Positions 4,947-22,379 of a stretch of DNA of 40,914 nt are shown piece after piece (position 1 is the first letter of the stretch; each line of letters opens with the position of its first letter). The notes below the pieces were generated by a model. It was not told where the DNA came from. It saw only the letters and a list, made by a program, of their open reading frames with translations, and did no database searches. This DNA comes from a virus. Taxonomy: Duplodnaviria; Caudoviricetes. The position numbers and the translations under genes were made by a program. Where the stretch lies: IMG/VR virus record IMGVR_UViG_3300017700_000575, positions 1 through 40,914 of that record; one strand, written 5' to 3'.

Positions 4947-4979
4947 CTCTTCATCCTATCACAGATCAGTGGAACTAGG

Positions 4980-5342
4980 TTAGGGGTGGCTCGGCTTCGC
5001 CTCGCGGAGTCCTTCAGAGAGACCTTCCGCCTTCGCAATCGCGGCGCGGGCGATTTCCCCTACGCTCTCGACGTAGTCGCCCACGACTCCATCGCCGCGT
5101 CCCATCCGCAGTTCCGCCAATTCCTTCAGCGCGGCCAGCAGATCGGGAGCGGCGGCGATCAGCGTTCGATCCCAGCCCCGAGGCGCGTAGTGCCCGCCAT
5201 CTGTTTCCACGATGGCCTCAAGGGAAACCCAGTCTCCCGACATATCGCCCGCGATGAAGGCGTTCCATTCGACCAGATTGGCGGCGCTGTAGAGGTTGCC
5301 GTCTTTGGCCCAGACCCAAGGCCCCGGCGTGTGTGCAGCCAT
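4980..5342 (-). CDS. Small phage accessory protein (HTPGPW...LIAAAPDLL...ARAAIAKAEG family)
   Basis: Widespread phage motifs; AGGGG RBS. Confidence 0.8.
   Translation of the reverse strand: MAAHTPGPWVWAKDGNLYSAANLVEWNAFIAGDMSGDWVSLEAIVETDGGHYAPRGWDRTLIAAAPDLLAALKELAELRMGRGDGVVGDYVESVGEIARAAIAKAEGLSEGLREAKPSHP
4982..5013 (-). repeat. Junction motif A, copy 1 (AGGACTCC-GCGAGGCGAAGCCGAGC-CACCCCT)
   Basis: Flanks identical to 5421-5456; GA-mismatch hairpin with GCGAAGC apex. Confidence 0.75.
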
Positions 5343-5360
5343 GATATTCCCCTATAGAGC

Positions 5361-5397
5361 AAAATTAGGACTACGCAGCCTCGCGAAGCGAGGGAAC
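5361..5397 (-). repeat. Junction motif B, copy 1 (GTTC-hairpin-CTGCGTAGTCCTAATTTT)
   Basis: Same layout as 7492-7530 and 19121-19160. Confidence 0.75.
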
Positions 5398-5420
5398 ACT
5401 ACTCCCGTATCAGGACAGGA

Positions 5421-5456
5421 AGGGGTGCCTCCGCGCTTCGCGCTCCGGGGAGTCCT
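5421..5456 (-). repeat. Junction motif A, copy 2 (AGGACTCC-CCGGAGCGCGAAGCGCGGAGG-CACCCCT)
   Basis: Flanks identical to 4982-5013; covarying stem. Confidence 0.75.
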
Positions 5457-5459
5457 GCA

Positions 5460-5810
5460 TTACGGACCTTCCTGCTCCTTACCCAGCAAAACAGCCATGA
5501 ATTCCTCAGTATCGTCTGGAAGCCTGAGGAGCCCTTCCGCAAGGGCTCCGTCGATCCATCCGCAAACGACAATCTTCGCGGCAATCCGGTTCGCGTCCTC
5601 GCTCAAATCCTCATCGACAGGCCCCGGCAGCATGTAGGCGCTAGTTGTCACATGTTCCCGCATTGCCTCTATGGCGGCGCGGGCGGCAACCCGGAAATCT
5701 TCTCGTAGGGACTCGGTCGTCATTTCCCAGTCTGCACGCCATGCTGGCTGATCGATGTGGCCTTGCAGGCGCTCAAACAGCACCCTCGCTACCTTCTCGA
5801 TCATGGTCAT
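5460..5810 (-). CDS. Small phage accessory protein (MIEKVAR...ARAAIEAMRE family)
   Basis: Recurrent phage motif; ATGA coupling. Confidence 0.75.
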   Translation of the reverse strand: MTMIEKVARVLFERLQGHIDQPAWRADWEMTTESLREDFRVAARAAIEAMREHVTTSAYMLPGPVDEDLSEDANRIAAKIVVCGWIDGALAEGLLRLPDDTEEFMAVLLGKEQEGP

Positions 5811-6019: not shown

Positions 6020-6570
6020 GTGCCGGGTGTCGTGCGGTCGCCATTTCTTCGCCCGGGCGTGTTCGTCGTTGTCTGCGCGATCATCTGTTGGCCTCCTGTC
6101 AGTATTTTATGGGCGTTTACGCTGGCATAGCAGATGGAAACGCGGGTTTGCTAAACCGTTAATGGGGGTAAACCCCATTCGAGGGTTCGAATCCCTTCCT
6201 CTCCGCCATTTCTGCATTATACGTCCGTCCCCTCTGGGGGAACAGCCGAAAAACCAGATATACTTGTGCCGGGTTTTGTGCCGCCCAGTCTCATGGCGCG
6301 CTGTTTCTCTTCGGGCGTCAGGTACTTCAAATACACTTCGGTTGTCTTGATGGAGGCGTGCCCAAGTATGCCCTGCAGGTCATAGATGTAGCCGCCGCGC
6401 CGGAGGAACATGACGGCGAAGTAATGCCGTAGATCATGGAACCGGAAGCGCACCCCCTCCCGCACACGCCATGCCCGGAAGTTGGCGGCAAAATTGGCAT
6501 AGGGATGTCCGTCGCCGTGCCAGAACACGAGGGCGCTTGTGCTGTGCCGAGGTGTGCCGGCTAATGTGCC
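6019..6570. promoter_or_regulatory. Putative integrase arm-type sites (TGTGCC pairs spaced 12 bp)
   Basis: TGTGCC at 6019 (with CGTGCG at 6031), 6265/6277 and 6543/6553/6565, flanking the core. Confidence 0.55.
6145..6208 (+). mobile_element. attP core: 3' portion of tRNA-Ser(GCT) from the anticodon loop to CCA
   Basis: GGT-TTGCTAA-ACC anticodon loop, long variable arm, GGTTCGAATCC, CTCTCCGCCA end; no 5' acceptor/D arm; adjacent to the int stop. Confidence 0.9.
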
Positions 6571-7296
6571 ACGAGCCTCAGCCAGCAGGGGACCATCGAG
6601 CGGAATTGCGCGGGGTAGATCCGTCTTGCTGCGCCCTACCGTGATGACGCCCCGATTGAGTTCGACTTGCCGCCACGTGAGGCCCAGCAGCTCGCCCTGA
6701 CGCATGCCCGTCAGGGCGGCTACCTCGATCAGGCGGGCAAAGGAGGGGGCCATGGCGACGGCCTTCTGGACCTCTTCCGGGGTAGGTATGTCGATCGGGT
6801 CGCGACGCTCCCGGATTAGGCTGCGGTCGTACTCGCGGGCGGCATTGTGCTCGGCGACGCCCCAACTGATTGCGCTGGCCAGCACGCGCGACACCGCGGT
6901 CAGGTCTCGGGTGATGCTCGCGTTCGTCACCTTGCCGGCGCGCTTTCGGGCGCTGATGATGGCGGCTATCTCACGTCGGCCGATGGTGTCCACGAACATT
7001 TCTTCAAGGGAAGGCAGCGCCAGGCCAACTTGGTTGAGGCTTATGAGGTAGCGAGTCGCGGTCGATTCCTTGATGGCTCCAGGCATGACCTCGGCGCAGT
7101 AGCGGCCAACAGCCTGTTTCCATGTCATGCGCGCATGGCCATATTGCTCAGCTTCGTTTAACTGCTCCTTCCACTTGCGGAGCCGTTTTTCCGCCTCGAG
7201 CTGATTAGGCGTTCGTAGACTTTTTCGTAGCTCCTTGTTGCCGGACTGAACGCGGCCCCAGTAGGTCTTGCCGCGCTTATAGAGGTTCCTCGCCAC
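6217..7296 (-). CDS. int: Tyrosine integrase
   Basis: TGMRQGEL (R), FHDLRH (HxxR), LGH, TEVY; GTG start at 7296 with GGAGG RBS. Confidence 0.95.
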   Translation of the reverse strand: MARNLYKRGKTYWGRVQSGNKELRKSLRTPNQLEAEKRLRKWKEQLNEAEQYGHARMTWKQAVGRYCAEVMPGAIKESTATRYLISLNQVGLALPSLEEMFVDTIGRREIAAIISARKRAGKVTNASITRDLTAVSRVLASAISWGVAEHNAAREYDRSLIRERRDPIDIPTPEEVQKAVAMAPSFARLIEVAALTGMRQGELLGLTWRQVELNRGVITVGRSKTDLPRAIPLDGPLLAEARGTLAGTPRHSTSALVFWHGDGHPYANFAANFRAWRVREGVRFRFHDLRHYFAVMFLRRGGYIYDLQGILGHASIKTTEVYLKYLTPEEKQRAMRLGGTKPGTSISGFSAVPPEGTDV

Positions 7297-7466: not shown

Positions 7467-7491
7467 CCGGGGGGTCCTTCGCCTATGCGTT

Positions 7492-7530
7492 AAAACTGGG
7501 AGAACACAGGCTGGCCGCAGGCCAGCGAGC
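7492..7530 (-). repeat. Junction motif B, copy 2 (GCTC-hairpin-CTGTGTTCTCCCAGTTTT)
   Basis: 7-bp stem with a GCA triloop on the + strand; starts at the stop codon of the upstream gene. Confidence 0.7.
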
Positions 7531-8648
7531 TATCCTCTCGTCCCATTGGACGAGGGATTCAGGAGCGCGCGGATAGCAGACAGGATTTCATCGCATTGCT
7601 CTGCCCGGCAATGCCATGCGAACTGCAAGTCGTTCTTGACCATCGCGTCGGCCGATCCCCGCGCTCGATCTCTGGCCAGTTCGACTATGACCCGTATCGA
7701 TTCCAGCGCCTCTTCCCGTCCACCGTCTCCCGGTGGGGAGCGGAGAGCGGCGGCAGCCAACTTGTGCGCGAGCCCTCTCATTCCAGCTTCTACGAGACAA
7801 GCGCCATCATCTGACGAGCATTTGCCGGTTCGGCGCAGCGCGCTGCATTGGTTTTCACACAGTATCTTCAAAAGCCTGTCGGCCAGTACGTCGTCTCCCC
7901 CTTGGGATGGAGGGGAGATGGGGGTGTCGCGCAAGAGCGCTCCGCCATGCGGCCCGACTTCATCGGGTGGTGCCTGCTCCAGAATAGAAATCCGGCAGCG
8001 TCGCGGGGTCAGGGACCCGTTGTCGAACTTATCGATCAACTGTAGGCAGTCCGCCTCGTCAACATGCAGCGTGGCGAGGTCCGGCACGCCTAAGGCATCG
8101 ACGCCGATCCAAAGATCCTCTCCTCCCCCTCTGGTCTGGGTACCTTCCGGCTGGGCTCCTTCGATTGCCGACCAATAGGTTTCCAGTGCTGCGTCGCATT
8201 TGATATACAAAGGGTGCTTCGGCGCGCCGCTCTTGGTCTTGCCGAGGCAATGCAACGACACTCCGAGCGACCGAGCCAGCCACATGAGGCGAACGTCACG
8301 GCCATGAACAGGATTGGCGCCCCACCCGCAAAGCACGACGCCGCCCAGCGTACGGACAGCCTCTAGAGCGGATTTGATATGGCCGTCGTTCTCGCTGCCG
8401 ACGCGCACGGTTGCCTTGTAGAGATCGGCAGGCTTAGTCGCGCGGAACCCAAACAGGTTGACGACGATCAGTCGGCCGCAATTTTCCCGCAAGGCAAAGC
8501 CCTTGCATCGCCGGATCGTCGGATCATCCAACTCTGCATCGGCGGTGCTCGGATTCAGCATGACAAAGACACACGTCCTGAACGCCTCGCCGACGGTTCG
8601 ATCCAATCTGTAGCGATACAGGCCGCATGGGCTGATGACCGCGCTCAT
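7530..8648 (-). CDS. DUF1643-family protein with a long C-terminal extension
   Basis: SAVISPCGLYRYRL..FVMLNPSTADA..DDPTIRRC..NLF.FRAT.P..WG..PKHPLY. Confidence 0.85.
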   Translation of the reverse strand: MSAVISPCGLYRYRLDRTVGEAFRTCVFVMLNPSTADAELDDPTIRRCKGFALRENCGRLIVVNLFGFRATKPADLYKATVRVGSENDGHIKSALEAVRTLGGVVLCGWGANPVHGRDVRLMWLARSLGVSLHCLGKTKSGAPKHPLYIKCDAALETYWSAIEGAQPEGTQTRGGGEDLWIGVDALGVPDLATLHVDEADCLQLIDKFDNGSLTPRRCRISILEQAPPDEVGPHGGALLRDTPISPPSQGGDDVLADRLLKILCENQCSALRRTGKCSSDDGACLVEAGMRGLAHKLAAAALRSPPGDGGREEALESIRVIVELARDRARGSADAMVKNDLQFAWHCRAEQCDEILSAIRALLNPSSNGTRG

Positions 8649-8950
8649 CTCTCCTCTCCCTCACGTAGTACGGGAAGTGACGAAGGGGGGCTCGCTGCGG
8701 CTGAACACCTCTCTCCGTCCTGTGGGGGAGGGGAAAGGGCGGCACGATGTCGATCGACGAAAGCTAGAGCCTTTTGCTTGAACGCCAGCACGCGGCCTTT
8801 AGGATCGCACTGACACGGCATCCGAGGATCTTTCAAAAACAAACATCCGGGCAGATGCCCCATCGGTGCGCGGAAGCCTTCGTCCAATAGGTCGAGTGCC
8901 TCTCGCATCGCTTCCTCTCCTGATAGGGGAGGTGTGGGCTTGTCGGTCAT
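8645..8950 (-). CDS. Hypothetical protein (H..C..C.C)
   Basis: Translationally coupled; C-terminus runs through junction motif C. Confidence 0.6.
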   Translation of the reverse strand: MTDKPTPPLSGEEAMREALDLLDEGFRAPMGHLPGCLFLKDPRMPCQCDPKGRVLAFKQKALAFVDRHRAALSPPPQDGERCSAAASPPSSLPVLREGEER

Positions 8951-10111: not shown

Positions 10112-10458
10112 CGCGTGGCCTGCATCTCCGCCCGCCGCGTCGACTCTGCCGACCGGGCAAACTCGCCCATGATCTTGGCGCCGTCGTATCGAACGCGGGC
10201 CAGGTTCGCGAGGCGGCGGGCGTCCACCATCTTGCCGATATGCTCGGCATAGCGTTCGTCACCCTTGGCAAGCGCCTCTGCCTTCCATGCGGGCTGGTCC
10301 AGATGCTCCTTGGTCAGCTTGGCGAGCAGGGTGCCCTTGGTTTCCTCGAGCAGATCCGCCGCGGCCTCGGCGTCGGCCCACAGTTCGCCCCGGCTGACGA
10401 TCGACTGGGCGAAGCGCGCGGGGTCCGCCAGCGAGCTATTGGCAAGCCTGTCGCTCAT
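10108..10458 (-). CDS. Helical recombination-accessory protein
   Basis: WADAEAAADLLEETK motif; directly downstream of the SSAP. Confidence 0.65.
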   Translation of the reverse strand: MSDRLANSSLADPARFAQSIVSRGELWADAEAAADLLEETKGTLLAKLTKEHLDQPAWKAEALAKGDERYAEHIGKMVDARRLANLARVRYDGAKIMGEFARSAESTRRAEMQATR

Positions 10459-11216
10459 GCGGCTACCGCCGGCAGGTCGTCGCGCTTGGCCTCTACCGCG
10501 GCGATGATGGCGGCAAAGTCTGGCTCGGGTAGCTTCTCGCGCAAGCCTGCCTTGTGCTCGTCCCACCACGCCTTGAGCTCAAAGCGGTTGGAACTGGTGC
10601 CGATCGCCAGCAGGGCGGTTTTGTTCAGAAGCTCGATCTCCTTGCGATCCTTCGTGACCTGGTAGGTCGAACGGGTTTCCGTCGTCAGGCCGTCCCTGCG
10701 GGCTTCGTCAGCGAACTCGCCGGGAGGCGTGCTGCCGGGGATGTGGCCACCGCTGGCGAACTCACGGGTGGTCTCGCGGACGTACTTCTCGTCCTCGAAC
10801 ATCCCCATGTGGATGTCCGCACCCATGCCGATCTGCTTCATGGCGTTCGACAGTGCGTCGGTGTAGGATGCCTTGAAGGCTTCGTCGTTGGTGAAAGGGC
10901 CGTACTTGTTCTTGCCCAGCACCTTGTCGCCGCCGACGCCGTAGACCGTAGCGTGCTCGCCGCCGTTTCCCGCGTCCTTGTACCAAAGCGACACAGTGCA
11001 GAAGACAAGGATTTCCTCGCCTGCAATCACCGTCTCGAACTTCGGCTCGCCCATCCCCCATCCAGAGCCAGCCGGCCCGAACTGCTCGGTAAGGCGCTTG
11101 GTAAGCCAGATAGGCTTGATGGCCGTCCCCTGGAATCCGCCCGCCCGCTTGAAGCCCTTTGTATGCCTTGGGTCCGTCTTGGAGACGGCGTTCCAGATGC
11201 GAAGGTTGTCAGACAT
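10455..11216 (-). CDS. Single-strand annealing recombinase, Rad52/Sak-like
   Basis: NL.IW..V.KTDP..TK...GGF.GTAI.P....LTEQFGP.G.GWG; EAFK..TDAL..A...IG.GADIHMG.F. Confidence 0.8.
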   Translation of the reverse strand: MSDNLRIWNAVSKTDPRHTKGFKRAGGFQGTAIKPIWLTKRLTEQFGPAGSGWGMGEPKFETVIAGEEILVFCTVSLWYKDAGNGGEHATVYGVGGDKVLGKNKYGPFTNDEAFKASYTDALSNAMKQIGMGADIHMGMFEDEKYVRETTREFASGGHIPGSTPPGEFADEARRDGLTTETRSTYQVTKDRKEIELLNKTALLAIGTSSNRFELKAWWDEHKAGLREKLPEPDFAAIIAAVEAKRDDLPAVAA

Positions 11217-11397: not shown

Positions 11398-11667
11398 CTA
11401 GGCCTCCTTGATCGGATGAAGCTTTCCGTCCTTGAAGGTGTTGCGCGCCGACACGCGCTGAAAACGACCCCAGTTGAGATGGCCGTTGGTGGGATGCGCG
11501 CGCTCCAGCAGGTCGGTGTAGGATGCGCGGCATTCATCAATCATTGCTCCAGCGCTGGACATCTCCATCACTGCGAGGCAGTGCATGAAGCCGTTCTTCT
11601 CGGCGGCCTCGATCGCCGCCAGCGCCTTGCGCAACTGCTCGGCGTCTACACAAAACTGCATGCTCAT
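11398..11667 (-). CDS. Hypothetical accessory protein
   Basis: AGGAG RBS inside junction motif C leader. Confidence 0.7.
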   Translation of the reverse strand: MSMQFCVDAEQLRKALAAIEAAEKNGFMHCLAVMEMSSAGAMIDECRASYTDLLERAHPTNGHLNWGRFQRVSARNTFKDGKLHPIKEA

Positions 11668-11720
11668 TGCAGGACACTCCTATTGGTTATGATGCGAAAG
11701 GGCGCGCCGCTGCGCGCGAA

Positions 11721-11921
11721 CTACCCTCCCAGTCCTCGAACGATGGCGATGATGCCTACCGCCACGAAAGCCGGTGCGATCCAAGGCCATATGCTGCGCT
11801 TGCGGGCCATAGGCTCGACCTTGAGGAGGTCCCACCTGTCATCCGTCCCTCTGCGCATATCGCGGTGGAGCATGGCTTGGGCCTCTTTCATCGTCGGGAG
11901 GATCTCGGGGCGGGCGTTCAT
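11721..11921 (-). CDS. Small membrane protein
   Basis: C-terminal TM IWPWIAPAFVAVGIIAIV. Confidence 0.65.
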   Translation of the reverse strand: MNARPEILPTMKEAQAMLHRDMRRGTDDRWDLLKVEPMARKRSIWPWIAPAFVAVGIIAIVRGLGG

Positions 11922-13340: not shown

Positions 13341-13763
13341 CTAGGCTCCAATCCCAGCGGCCTTGGCGCGATGGATGCGCAACGCCCAAAAACCATCATC
13401 ACGCTGCAGCCACTCCCCGATCTTGATGCTCTTGCCCGTTTCGTCTTCAACCTCGACGAAGCGTCCACTTTCGTGGCTGGGTGGTCCGTCGAAGACGATG
13501 TCAATGAAAGGAACCGAAGGCTTGGGCGGCGCTTCCGGTCCGCCGTGGCCTACGCACGCGAGGCCCGGCACATAGCCGTCATACCGACCGTCGATGCGCG
13601 TGTAGCGACCCTGCCCGACGTTCCAAATTCGCGCGCTGGGCGGGGGACGTCCGTAAGCTGGCTTGTCACAGAAGCCGTCTGGGCAGCCGCCGGACCACAT
13701 GGGGACCGAGCACTTGCCGACGCCGTCCGTCAGTTCCTCGTGGTGCTTGCTCATGCGCGCCAT
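13341..13763 (-). CDS. Two-module hypothetical protein (Cys-rich N-terminus; IDIVFDGPPSHESGRFVEVED C-terminus)
   Basis: TGATG coupling; recurrent phage domain. Confidence 0.7.
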   Translation of the reverse strand: MARMSKHHEELTDGVGKCSVPMWSGGCPDGFCDKPAYGRPPPSARIWNVGQGRYTRIDGRYDGYVPGLACVGHGGPEAPPKPSVPFIDIVFDGPPSHESGRFVEVEDETGKSIKIGEWLQRDDGFWALRIHRAKAAGIGA

Positions 13764-14172: not shown

Positions 14173-14442
14173 TCAGGCTCCGATCCCAGCAGCCTTGGCG
14201 CGCTCGATGGCCTTCTCGACTTCGACCAATGCGCCCAGCGGGGTGCCGTCGCCAACGAACGTGGTGCGATGCTTGGCGAAGTAGTCGAGGAAGCGCTGGG
14301 CCTCCTCCAACGCCTCAAGCATGGCGCGGACGACGGGGTCATTGGCCACAACCTCCGCGCGGGTGAACGGAATTGCGCCCGGCGCTACGTGGTCATTGTC
14401 GACTGGCGGCGTGATGGAGAGGGCGGTGTGGGTGGTGGGCAT
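14173..14442 (-). CDS. First gene of the PL operon, hypothetical
   Basis: GGGAG RBS; MPTTHTA start; MLEALEEA...AIERAK motif. Confidence 0.65.
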   Translation of the reverse strand: MPTTHTALSITPPVDNDHVAPGAIPFTRAEVVANDPVVRAMLEALEEAQRFLDYFAKHRTTFVGDGTPLGALVEVEKAIERAKAAGIGA

Positions 14443-17374: not shown

Positions 17375-18145
17375 ATGATCAAAGCTGGCCCCATCACGCT
17401 CAAGACGCACCTCAAGGGCCTTATCGAGGAACTGGAGGCATCGGATGACCGGATCGCCTCGGAGCGCGAACTGCAGAAGGCCGCGCTGGACGCCTCGAAG
17501 GAGGCCCACGGCACCGAGGCCGCCAGTGTCCGCAGATTGGTCAGCCTGCGCCGCAAGATCGCCAAGGATCCGGCAGAGGCGCGGCGGATCGAGGAAATCG
17601 ATGACCAGTACCGTTTCCTGGTCGAAGGCGGAGACCGGCCGGCGCACGCGCCCGAGGTCATGGACGAACTGAGCCGGGTTCTGGCGCTCACCAACACGTC
17701 GAAGCCGCCCAAGATCGAGGCCATCAAGAAGGCTCTCGGGTGCAGCCAGGGAAAGGCGCACAAACTGCGCTCGCTGGCTGCGGCGCGTCTGGCGAGCGGC
17801 GCGCGGGAAAGTTCAAGTTCATCGACCCCGCGTGAACATGAACATTTGGCCCCGCACGATGCAGACGGTGTTGTGCAGGAGGAGGTGGAGCGGAGCGAGG
17901 GAATCGAACCCGTCGTCATTGGTTTGGAAGACCAAAGCTCTGCCATTGAGCTAGCCCCGCAGCGCGCAGAGCCTACCACAGACGACGCTTCCCCTCCATC
18001 CGTTTTCACGGGTGAAAGGAGCGCGCCGGCACCGATCGGAGGGACGTCGGGCGGCACACCTTCAGACGACTGGGACGCCATAGCCCGCGAGCAGGCCGCC
18101 CTGAACGAGGCTCGCCGTCGTCGTCTTGCACAGGTGCCGGCATGA
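17375..18145 (+). CDS. GapR/DUF2312-like nucleoid-associated protein with HTH-like middle and low-complexity tail
   Basis: LKGLIEELE...VRRLVSLRRK..DPAE.....DQY resembles GapR. Confidence 0.6.
   Translation: MIKAGPITLKTHLKGLIEELEASDDRIASERELQKAALDASKEAHGTEAASVRRLVSLRRKIAKDPAEARRIEEIDDQYRFLVEGGDRPAHAPEVMDELSRVLALTNTSKPPKIEAIKKALGCSQGKAHKLRSLAAARLASGARESSSSSTPREHEHLAPHDADGVVQEEVERSEGIEPVVIGLEDQSSAIELAPQRAEPTTDDASPPSVFTGERSAPAPIGGTSGGTPSDDWDAIAREQAALNEARRRRLAQVPA
17886..17960 (-). tRNA. tRNA-Gly(UCC)-like sequence, antisense within the CDS, with a 1-nt T-stem bulge
   Basis: GCGGGGC TA GCTC AATGGCA GAGC T TTGGT CTTCCAA ACCAA TGAC GA(C)GGG TTCGATT CCCTC GCTCCGC T CCA. Confidence 0.75.
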
Positions 18146-18741: not shown

Positions 18742-19113
18742 ATGACTGCCCAACCCTTTACCACGAATCCGTCCGTGCTTCGCGCCCTCGCAGATAGATG
18801 CGAGCGGGAGGAGCCGAGCGACAAACTGGACGCCGCGATCGCGCGGGCTGTGCTGGGCCCAAACCGCTATGTCCTGCCCTACACCACCTCCCTCGACGCT
18901 GCCGTAACGCTCGTGCCGGAAGGGTGGTGCATCGACTCTCTGGGTGACGAGGGAACTTACGGCGACGCCCAACGGTTCGAAATCACTGGATGCTCTGTCC
19001 GCCTGTCAGATGGATTTTCCGAGTCATCCTTTGGGGAGGCGAGTTCCCGGGCCGCAGCGATCTGCGCCGCTTCTCTCCGTGCTCTCGCTCTCCTCGCAGA
19101 AGGTGAAGCATGA
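18742..19113 (+). CDS. Phage ABA-sandwich/NinX-like protein
   Basis: LDAAIA...PYTTSLDAA.TLVPEGW...A.AICAA.LRA. Confidence 0.7.
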   Translation: MTAQPFTTNPSVLRALADRCEREEPSDKLDAAIARAVLGPNRYVLPYTTSLDAAVTLVPEGWCIDSLGDEGTYGDAQRFEITGCSVRLSDGFSESSFGEASSRAAAICAASLRALALLAEGEA

Positions 19114-19120
19114 GAGGGGA

Positions 19121-19160
19121 GTTCGCCCGCCAAGAGGCGGGCCTGTGTATTCCTAATTTT
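19121..19160 (+). repeat. Junction motif B, copy 3 (GTTC-hairpin-CTGTGTATTCCTAATTTT)
   Basis: Same layout as 5361-5397 and 7492-7530. Confidence 0.75.
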
Positions 19161-19229
19161 ACTGCACAGGAAGCATCACCGACCCGACGTACGATCGCAG
19201 CATCGCCCAACCGCGCAGTGCTGGGCGGG

Positions 19230-19924: not shown

Positions 19925-20889
19925 CAGATCCATTCACGCCCGCTGACTGCGACCTGCGCGGTATGCCCTACATGCCGCTTCACGGCGATCGGCTTTTCGG
20001 CTCGGCAACATGGATAGGCGCGAACGCCGAGGCCAAGGTCGCCGCGCTACGCCTGTGGTGGCGATCCTTTGCCCATGAGGTGCCGGCTGCCAGCTTGCCG
20101 GACGATGACGTGCTGCTCGCCGACTATGCGGGCTACGGCGTCGGCATCAAGGCATGGCGCAAGGTGCGACCCCAGGCGATGCGCGGCTGGGTTAAGTGTG
20201 CCGATGGCCGCCTCTATCATCGCACGGTTGCAGAGGTCGCCCTTGAGGCGTGGGACCAGCGCAAGCGTAACCGCGAGAAGCAGGAAAAGTGGCGGCAGAA
20301 AAACCGCTCAGTAACCCCTCCTGTAACGGTTACGCAGGGGGTTACGGAACGGTTGTGTAACGCCGGAAGTGAAGGGAAGGGAAGTGAAGCTAAGGGACTT
20401 AAAGATGCACCAGCAGCGACGCGCGAGGACGAAGCCCTAGCCGAGTGGCAGAGCGGAGCGGCTGGGCATGGTTGGCGGAGTGCCGATTTCATGACCAGCA
20501 CGCGCCGCTTCCGCTTCGCTGCTGCGCTCGACACCTACGGCGGGCTTGAGGGCTGGAAGCGCATTCTCGACAAGGCGTCTGAGGCTGGCTTTTTCCTCGA
20601 TGACAACGGCGAGTGGCACCACTGGTTCACGCTCGACTGGCTGCTCGACCAAGACCACATCGCGCGCCTGCTTGAGGGGGCATACGCAGAGCGTCGCAAG
20701 CCTCTTGAGCGCAAATCCCGATACGGGAAATCCCCTATCGATGCGAACAGCATGCCGGCTGCCGAGGAATGGGGGCCGCGCCTGGACGGTTGGCGCAAGA
20801 GCGGTTTCTGGCCTGTGCAACTGTGGGGGCCTAAGCCCGGCGAATCGGGCTGCCGAGCCCCCGCCGCCCTGATCGGAGGAACAGCATGA
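19921..20889 (+). CDS. Replication initiator, DUF1376/YdaU-like N-terminus
   Basis: P.DCDLRG.PYMPL...RL; PAASLPDDD..LA; GW..C.DGRLYH; FTLDWLL....LLEG.Y. Confidence 0.8.
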   Translation: MTDPFTPADCDLRGMPYMPLHGDRLFGSATWIGANAEAKVAALRLWWRSFAHEVPAASLPDDDVLLADYAGYGVGIKAWRKVRPQAMRGWVKCADGRLYHRTVAEVALEAWDQRKRNREKQEKWRQKNRSVTPPVTVTQGVTERLCNAGSEGKGSEAKGLKDAPAATREDEALAEWQSGAAGHGWRSADFMTSTRRFRFAAALDTYGGLEGWKRILDKASEAGFFLDDNGEWHHWFTLDWLLDQDHIARLLEGAYAERRKPLERKSRYGKSPIDANSMPAAEEWGPRLDGWRKSGFWPVQLWGPKPGESGCRAPAALIGGTA

Positions 20890-21471: not shown

Positions 21472-21714
21472 ATGAGGAAGATGAAGCGCGAATGGACGGC
21501 GGACCACACCAAGACGCTGAAAGCATTGGTGAATATCGGCCTGAACAATGCTACAATCGCCGCGCACACAGGCCATCACGTCGAGACGGTCAGGCGCCGA
21601 CGCGACGCCCTCGGGCTGCCCGACACCTACGAAGTGCGCTACGGCTCTTGGGCTGATCTGCCGGTATCGGCTCTGCGCGCGATGGAACGTGAAACACGGA
21701 GGATGGCGGCATGA
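21472..21714 (+). CDS. Small HTH protein, GcrA-N-terminus-like
   Basis: WT......LK.L...GL....IA...G......VR.R...LGL. Confidence 0.6.
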   Translation: MRKMKREWTADHTKTLKALVNIGLNNATIAAHTGHHVETVRRRRDALGLPDTYEVRYGSWADLPVSALRAMERETRRMAA

Positions 21715-21923
21715 GTGACAAGCCAGAGTACCCGATCAATGAGGCCATCTTCGGCCGCGCCTTTCGCGACCTGCCGGACGGCGTGGATGAGATGCGCGCC
21801 AAGTATCGCGCTCGCGGCATGATGAGCCTGCCCGAATTGCTCTTGGCAGAGGGCGTTGAGCCGGGATCAACCATCGACTTCAATGCTGGCGCGATCCTGC
21901 CGCCCGAAAAGTCCGATGGCTGA
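21711..21923 (+). CDS. Hypothetical protein
   Basis: ATGA coupling. Confidence 0.6.
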   Translation: MSDKPEYPINEAIFGRAFRDLPDGVDEMRAKYRARGMMSLPELLLAEGVEPGSTIDFNAGAILPPEKSDG

Positions 21924-22131
21924 TGTGTTCGCCGTCGCGGCTTTGCTGGCATACTTGGCCGTGTGCGTTTGGGTGGGCGTAGTGATTCCGCTCTTGTACG
22001 AGCGCCGCATGCGGAGGAAGTCAGACGAGCGCTGGGCAGCAAACGTCGCTTGGGTGGACGCGAGCCAAGCCGCCTATTCCGTGGCAGCACTGAGGGCCAT
22101 GGAGCGAGAGACACGGAGGATGGCGGCGTGA
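21916..22131 (+). CDS. Small membrane protein sharing its C-terminus with 21472..21714
   Basis: N-terminal TM; ends ALRAMERETRRMAA. Confidence 0.6.
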   Translation: MADVFAVAALLAYLAVCVWVGVVIPLLYERRMRRKSDERWAANVAWVDASQAAYSVAALRAMERETRRMAA

Positions 22132-22379
22132 GCGAGGAAACACACGGGTACGAATGGAAGAACCATTCAGTCTCGGTAGCTGGATTGGCTAGCCCAGCCC
22201 TCATCTCTGCCATAAGCCATGCAGAGGATGCGATGAGCCATTCGATATCGCGCGCGCTGTACGCAGACACTGGCCCGCACAAGCCACCCACGCGGTGGGA
22301 GCGCCTGAAGGCGTGGCGAGATCGCATGCGCAATCGTCTGGCCTACTGGATTGCCACGGACGACGCCTTCGATCGATGA
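22128..22379 (+). CDS. Hypothetical protein
   Basis: GTGA coupling; GGAGG RBS. Confidence 0.55.
   Translation: MSEETHGYEWKNHSVSVAGLASPALISAISHAEDAMSHSISRALYADTGPHKPPTRWERLKAWRDRMRNRLAYWIATDDAFDR

Follow-up and report, generated by a model that had tools for sequence, protein, structure and literature searches.

One structured repeat of about 55 nt borders the accessory genes of the phage genome described here; homologues with covarying pairs occur in 18 other phage contigs, the carriers being a group of freshwater temperate phages, and gene content is found to change at the repeats between close relatives, a conclusion that the comparisons support. The repeats are tentatively read here as priming-type single-stranded DNA (ssDNA) signals shuffled by phage annealases, a possibility to which we give somewhat less than even confidence. 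The window, i.e. the whole stretch of DNA analysed (40,914 nt), is a complete circular phage genome with a terminal overlap of 123 nt and a lambdoid gene order (lysis, integrase, repressor, replication, terminase, portal, capsid), and its structural genes are common to two complete relatives.

The best named relatives of the window integrase are from Ferrovibrio, Vineibacter and Magnetospirillum, and GapR-like genes are present in relatives of the phage; judged from these sequence relationships, the host is probably an alphaproteobacterium. A tRNA-Ser(GCT)-like 3' part at 6128-6208 (+), beside the integrase, is likely the attP core and a clue to the host. A tRNA-Gly(TCC) gene lies at 17886-17960 (-), antisense within ORF 17375-18145, and short purine-rich repeats within the replication gene (20362-20398) are possibly origin iterons. 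The copies of the repeat in the window are confined to the early and accessory regions, with none in the structural half (Table 1).

Table 1. Copies of the repeat and associated genes in the window.
Feature	Position	Strand	Remarks
Motif A, copy 1	4983..5030	-	within 3' end of gene 4980-5342
Parts of copy 1	X 5028-5022, spacer 5021-5013, Y 5012-5006, GA/GA hairpin 5005-4989, CA 4988-4987, tail CCCC	-	
Motif A, copy 2	5422..5476	-	overlaps stop of gene 5460-5810
Parts of copy 2	X 5472-5466, spacer 5465-5456, Y 5455-5449, GGA/GGA hairpin 5448-5428, CA, tail CCCC	-	
Motif B	5351..5399	+	A-family variant against transcription; with A copy 2 forms tail-to-tail doublet 5351-5476
Motif B	7482..7532	+	between DUF1643 gene and excisionase-like gene
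Motif B	19119..19170	-	before Dam methylase gene
Degenerate X box	19095-19104	+	end of gene upstream of motif B 19119..19170
Motif C	8672..8708	+	imperfect hairpin; upstream of DUF1643 gene
Motif C	11676..11723	+	upstream of gene 11398-11667
Accessory gene, 120 aa	4980..5342	-	phrog_1273 (function unassigned); B at 5' side, A at 3' side
Accessory gene, 116 aa	5460..5810	-	no family match; ends in X box of A copy 2
Phage tyrosine integrase	6217..7296	-	not IntI (29.7 bits vs cut-off 265); adjoins attP-like tRNA-Ser fragment
Predicted Rad52/Sak-like single-strand annealing protein	10455..11216	-	feature score 0.94; one structure row TM 0.86

The alignment comprises 56 distinct copies of motif A from the window and the 18 other contigs, found by pattern scans; 14 of these 18 belong to one accession series and are not independent. 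Of 60 parsed sites, four were excluded: two were duplicates, one was chance-like and one had a broken hairpin. Contig L054 was left out as identical to the window, and pattern matches without a hairpin were dropped before counting (11 of 17 loci, 5 of 7 and 5 of 34 in successive scans, as well as L006 and L108). The layout consists of box X, spacer, box Y, a 2-bp stem, a G·A/G·A loop, a variable hairpin, CA and a tail. Box X is a purine box reading GGAAGGT in 40 of the 56 copies, the spacer varies between 8 and 11 nt, and box Y is GGACTCC in 43 copies. The internal loop is GA/GA or of a 3x3 G·A type; the inner stems occur in 25 distinct forms with mostly GNA tip loops. The CA after the hairpin is invariant (56/56), and the commonest tails behind it are CCCC (18/56) and GTTC (12/56). 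Loops of the d(GCGNAGC) type are unusually stable. Pairing of the outer positions reaches 98.2%, and 27 changes there are two-sided; none of 500 shuffles scored as high. GC/CG swaps of the outer stem occur in 24 and 3 sequences, counts of a kind that kinship inflates. Energy folding was uninformative (z -1.7 to +0.6) and also strand-neutral.

The original prediction had described three motifs, A, B and C, at six accessory-gene junctions beginning with G(T/C)TC, and all six tetranucleotides are present (4972, 5394, 7527, 8703, 11718 and 19121). Five follow a purine-rich tract (10-12 of 14 positions), which 4972 lacks (4 of 14), and perfect stems of 6-7 bp follow at 5394, 7527, 11718 and 19121, while the hairpin at 8703 is imperfect and was not caught by the stem scans. 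A rule derived post hoc from that description, requiring a purine tract, G(T/C)TC and a stem no shorter than 6 bp, matches five places in the window, namely four of these sites and 15879; in 60 shuffles it matched 0.03 times on average and never more than once. The facing ends AGGACT at 5367 and AGTCCT at 5451 with GCGAAGC loops on opposite strands, and a unit of 416 bp around gene 4980-5342 with the next GTTC 6 nt later, were likewise confirmed; the stops lie at 4980-4982 and 5460-5462. The three motifs are real, but they are not separate: all are variants of the one repeat. Motif A reaches about 20 nt further 5' than had been called, up to the GGAAGGT box, and B and C show this layout on the other strand: one box, the spacer, a second box, the hairpin, GA and C(A/T) follow each other as in A. 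Their GTTC is consequently the 3' base of the hairpin itself in reverse complement, and a role as a separate IS91-type tetranucleotide target is not supported.

Motifs B and C recur in G001 and G003 with three more copies each. A first scan of viral contigs for motif B gave four matches, none with a hairpin or a downstream box, and a second gave eight, of which two were known (G001, G003) and six lacked a hairpin. Blastn detected no motif A in cultured phages and plasmids, and matches to the repeat in Shinella and Ralstonia were rejected as chance. No copy turned up in a Bradyrhizobium phage, in a spring phage with related capsids, or near any of six distantly related versions of gene 4980-5342. 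G003 (L075:3148, 5893 and 6408; L076) has additional variants, in which the GA loops are nested or the Y box differs, and also encodes at least five related HNH-like genes. At L007:808 there is one weak hairpin-CA match with no X or Y box, in a phage whose integrase is 34% identical.

Orientation was assigned by hand from ORF maps. Of the 56 copies, 27 point in the direction of transcription; most of these stand at the 3' end of a gene and have a CC tail. The other 29 point the opposite way and are mostly found where a gene starts, with a GT tail and a CGTC flank (association of tail or flank with orientation, p=0.0006-0.007). The contigs carry 2-8 copies each, in both orientations and at gene ends. 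Neighbouring copies are inverted in 24 of 37 pairs (11 tail-to-tail, 13 enclosing genes) and direct in the remaining 13; eight of the 11 tail-to-tail doublets are spaced 81-176 nt. Open frames often run through the repeat, and stops and starts are frequent within it. In L069 (3046-3276) a 76-codon open frame spans a whole doublet, from sense copy to antisense copy. The G·A-type loop is intact in 26/27 sense and 27/29 antisense copies; from this we infer that the repeat acts at the DNA level, in agreement with the ssDNA-type signal first proposed, the fold looking like DNA rather than RNA.

The same counts make it improbable that the repeats are RNA or translational signals (portable RBS, stop/restart element, processing site or attenuator) like the PeSL cassettes of T4-type phages, which are hairpin-marked shuffling seams (PMC2839356). 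Consistent with such signals, box X resembles a Shine-Dalgarno sequence and is often followed, at a distance of about 5 nt, by an ATG within the spacer, and the outer box of some A copies, and usually that of B and C, serves as the SD of the next gene. However, transcription of half of the copies yields the reverse complement, yet these copies keep the same strand-specific loop, and no Rfam family matches the repeat. Moreover, between 4500 and 12500 in the window there is no sigma-70 match to the E. coli consensus, which may miss alphaproteobacterial promoters, and terminator-like sites are below chance (0 vs 1.5; 3 vs 6.1). PeSLs share with the present repeat the occurrence of stem-loops in variable regions beside genes of unknown function and the shuffling between copies (PMC2839356), whereas the present repeat has no sigma-70 promoter and no surplus of terminators, stands in both orientations, has a DNA-type fold with a G·A loop and is found in temperate phages. 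A joint of the repeat comparable to the PeSL mini-circles, or an excision joint of the window unit, was not found in the contigs of one freshwater metagenome run, which drop rare variants; an empty 5397-to-4976 site for the window unit was not found either. TIGR arrays and C4-type antisense RNA were rejected, as the repeat is not tandem and matches no Rfam family.

Exchange at the repeats is seen in a filled/empty pair, in which L049 is about 940 bp longer than L069 and the extra segment lies between two direct copies sharing an identical 23-bp core and one spacer; its main gene has no Pfam match and is, by its sequence, a probable methylase. Homologues of gene 4980-5342 are accompanied by B and A in the window, by a weak copy and A in L047, by C and box X only in G001, and by a 5' A copy in G002. 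Pairs of copies with an identical hairpin differ in the spacer in 13/13 and in the tail in 9/13 cases, and pairs with an identical spacer differ in the hairpin in 8/8. Junctions map 5' of X, within the spacer and immediately behind CA, and there is reassortment of flanks, spacers, hairpins and tails. Gene content thus changes at the motifs, as had been predicted, but not at one fixed point, for which GTTC or CACCCCT had been named: the flank switches at several points within the repeat, with no single crossover point.

Over all pairs, 11 of 50 ends of shared segments fall at sites, compared with 5.9 for random placement (p=0.024) and 10.1 under a gene-end null (p=0.42). In pairs at least 88% identical, 9 of 11 ends do so with a 20-nt margin (gene-end null 4.1, p=0.001) and 6 of 11 with a 10-nt margin (p=0.07), the high-identity subset and both margins having been chosen afterwards. 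Enrichment of the repeats at segment ends beyond that of gene ends is weak. A search for palindromic X..X' empty sites gave one chance-like match.

Crossovers at every conserved box, together with the many degenerate or partial copies, would also fit inherited linkers, i.e. relics of host or plasmid palindromes that spread as shared gene-end sequence and whose fold is now functionless; box X is moreover the natural AKAEG-coding end of the family of gene 4980-5342 in unrelated, hairpin-less phages. We consider such linkers decidedly unlikely, since drift alone is expected to erode the fold, whereas pairing is maintained in 25 different inner stems, covariation is seen in the outer pairs, and 53/56 copies have the G·A loop. 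The reassortment of spacers bears on another reading, in which X-spacer-Y is an asymmetric tyrosine-recombinase site and genes move like the Acinetobacter dif modules. Both have asymmetric sites with variable spacers, often in alternating orientation around accessory genes (PMC13141974), and here two different arms enclose a variable spacer from a small repertoire, 24 of 37 neighbouring pairs are inverted and the copies flanking the L049 insert share one spacer. In contrast to the fixed 6 nt of dif, the spacer is 8-11 nt long; identical hairpins never keep the spacer, although pdif exchange needs matching spacers (PMC13141974); 13 of the 37 neighbours are direct; and the covarying hairpin attached to each site would be left without a role. 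Spacers here change through exchange, and dif-like movement is very improbable.

The priming reading draws on likenesses to plasmid and phage replication signals. One phage copy matches 1041 plasmid records, about 1000 of them at 20/21 nt including the CA-GTGA tail, and a Streptomyces plasmid end is also among the matches. A strict descriptor derived from the phage copies has a single match in ColE1 (L109:1330; shuffle mean 0.08), a region aligned by 7 of 64 sites on the same strand and by 1 on the other. The F-G intergenic hairpin of phiX174 shares the CC-GA...GA-GG base and has a long loop; this match is without CA, fails the strict descriptor and needs a longer-loop descriptor allowed after the sequence was known. 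Just 3' of that hairpin, L110:2360-2385 resembles box X plus spacer, which may be chance, as both are SD-like. We take the two matched hairpins to be the mapped PriA primosome assembly sites (pas) of ColE1 (ssiA, or n'-pas) and phiX174. The ssiA of ColE1 is described as a signal for PriA assembly that becomes exposed on the downstream side of the origin, with a second pas, ssiB, in ColE1-type origins (PMC3167613), and the phiX174 pas as a PriA-bound hairpin (PMC5778457). The ssiB site of ColE1 gave no descriptor match.

With the PriA sites the repeat has in common a two-pair hairpin base with tandem G·A and a stem, and with ColE1 also the GNA loop and the CA-GTGA tail; the outer pairs covary in the plasmid homologues too. 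In contrast, a GAGGAAGCGG box 3' of the hairpin is kept in 4/4 plasmid-type homologues displayed, of five examined, and is absent within 40 nt in 56/56 phage copies; the repeat adds an upstream X-spacer-Y module; and PriA sites stand singly beside an origin, whereas the phages carry several copies at gene ends. A G4-type primase context after CA occurs in 5/56 copies and, in two controls, in 1/56; numbers this low carry no weight. A further reservation about counting the repeat among the PriA sites is that hairpins with G·A pairs could be a device of ssDNA in general, so that the repeat may at most be said to work like a pas.

According to the proposed mechanism, the repeat would be a PriA-type priming hairpin, as predicted from these likenesses, that makes accessory-gene ends preferred exchange points. 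Annealases of the Rad52/Erf type would recombine two copies at their conserved boxes, and a crossover between direct copies would lead to gain, loss or swapping of the genes between them. More speculatively, host PriA would bind the hairpin on the exposed strand and turn the joint into a replication fork, and such binding might account for the retention of the fold irrespective of strand. The predicted Rad52/Sak-like annealase of the window (10455..11216) is a candidate shuffling enzyme; it has no Pfam match by sequence, while its structure row meets the bar for PF04098. G003 encodes a homologue 74% identical to it, and G001 has an Erf annealase gene.

Several results argue against parts of this mechanism. 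The missing GAGGAAGCGG box, the lack of an ssiB match and the longer loop of phiX174 speak against priming, as do box X and the fixed spacing, which lie beyond the reach of PriA, and the finding that sites to one side of the replication gene occupy both strands. That 11/50 segment ends fall at sites, as gene ends predict, argues against a strong role in exchange. The shared boxes offer only 10-23 bp of homology, which is short for annealases and argues against crossing-over by them; Rad52/Erf-type annealases do tolerate diverged homology (PMC3945230). How new genes first acquire the repeat is outside the reach of the priming and annealase model and is not explained by it.

The acquisition of the repeat by new genes, as well as the invariant CA junction, would be best accounted for by a dedicated gene-capture or cassette system, in which the repeats are ends recognised by a hairpin-recognising enzyme (HUH-, Ssn- or integrase-like) acting in trans, later recombination having blurred the junctions. 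A capture system with an enzyme in trans is what the original prediction had proposed; we regard such a system as unlikely, though not remotely so. Many unrelated genes end or begin within the repeat, and in G001:12413 a gene is cut off directly after CA(G) against its uninterrupted homologue in L049:5042. The tails differ by orientation (GTTC in 11/29 antisense vs 1/27 sense copies, p=0.002). DDE-transposon ends, considered for the terminal CA, were rejected, the paired tails showing by eye no target duplication. Recognisable cargo among 146 neighbouring proteins includes methylases, Lar, DUF551, DUF1643 and similar.

No such enzyme was found. Among five phage records, Y1 transposases (0/5; control 6/14), GIY-YIG PF01541 (0/5; control 12/14) and IS110 were all lacking, and the best IntI score was 29.7 bits against a cut-off of 265; a Y2 HUH search was positive in 0/5 records and in none of the control genomes either. 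A T5orf172-domain gene of G001 is not flanked by repeats, and the 146 proteins neighbouring the sites include no transposase, Y2 type included. The prediction that no enzyme is encoded in cis is thus supported, while a co-occurrence of the repeat with a recombinase or HUH gene, also envisaged, was not found. No chromosomal arrays were found in genomes among which the true host may be absent: the search of 185,579 species genomes with the strict pattern yielded a single contig, a phage-like one, and a looser pattern gave 8 matches vs 13 for the control in 401 sampled Pseudomonadota genomes, i.e. chance level. This contig, L079 (G005:C250), is 10 kb long and encodes GapR-like, RusA and methylase genes; its place in a Planctomycetia bin is probably a binning error.

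Systems served by such enzymes resemble the repeat in part. The attC core pair of integrons follows the pattern RYYYAAC...GTTRRRY. As in integrons, small genes end in a folded ssDNA site with a variable tip (PMC8618304), but the repeat has no attC core (0/56), is without IntI and stands in both orientations (27 copies sense, 29 antisense), and the statement that these are not attC sites was upheld; integron arrays without IntI do exist (PMC8618304). REP/REPIN repeats with RAYT comprise a Y1 transposase flanked by repeats and many chromosomal copies in inverted doublets. Tail-to-tail doublets close together are common to REP/REPIN and the present repeat, which differs in having no nuclease or transposase gene between copies and in that no chromosomal arrays were found. 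The SRM/NTS repeats of Ssn are likewise ssDNA hairpin repeats in inverted doublets, in which the C behind the palindrome is conserved and the sequence directly upstream varies; SsnA needs this C and cuts a few bases upstream, where spacers change here (PMC11893778). None of the 56 copies fits the published SRM pattern, however, and no GIY-YIG gene lies beside the repeats in the five records.

Hairpin-CA-GTTC resembles the terIS of the IS91 family, and a palindrome stands beside GTTC, GTCC or GTAC in 15/56 copies, with no target duplication evident, as in the oriIS/terIS described in PMC13181058. A tail tetranucleotide with T in position 2 occurs in 20/56 copies, the GTTC of B and C belonging to the hairpin base; in contrast to IS91, the commonest tail is CCCC, no Y2 transposase is seen, and the copies are inverted versions of one motif on opposite strands, whereas IS91 has two distinct ends on one strand. 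Capture and priming might also be combined: freshwater alphaproteobacterial temperate phages would run an enzyme-less, integron-like capture, in which a host ssDNA hairpin enzyme joins the repeat to foreign gene ends at CA and the priming hairpin lets the single-stranded cassette be copied and inserted, a scenario we hold to be rather unlikely.

It is still a matter of debate how temperate phages acquire and exchange small accessory genes almost exactly at gene boundaries, and the repeat offers a defined, covarying 55-nt substrate for the study of gene swapping. The DNA-type, two-orientation version of hairpin-marked seams looks new in the literature searched. If the priming link holds, a replication-restart signal would double as a gene-shuffling seam, which was not found in literature where subscription and older papers are sparse; if a trans-acting enzyme exists, the repeats would mark a new cassette system.

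Other repeats were also observed in the window. Two direct two-copy repeats at gene ends, unrelated to motif A, lie at 13343-13377 / 14175-14209 (35 nt, 89%) and 21670-21718 / 22087-22135 (49 nt, 82%). A second hairpin type, with a pyrimidine arm and a purine arm, occurs at module joins (7892, 8708, 8914 and 19893) and also within the long C-terminal part of the DUF1643 ORF; the pieces 8711-8741 and 8900-8920 are shared by other contigs of one freshwater metagenome run.
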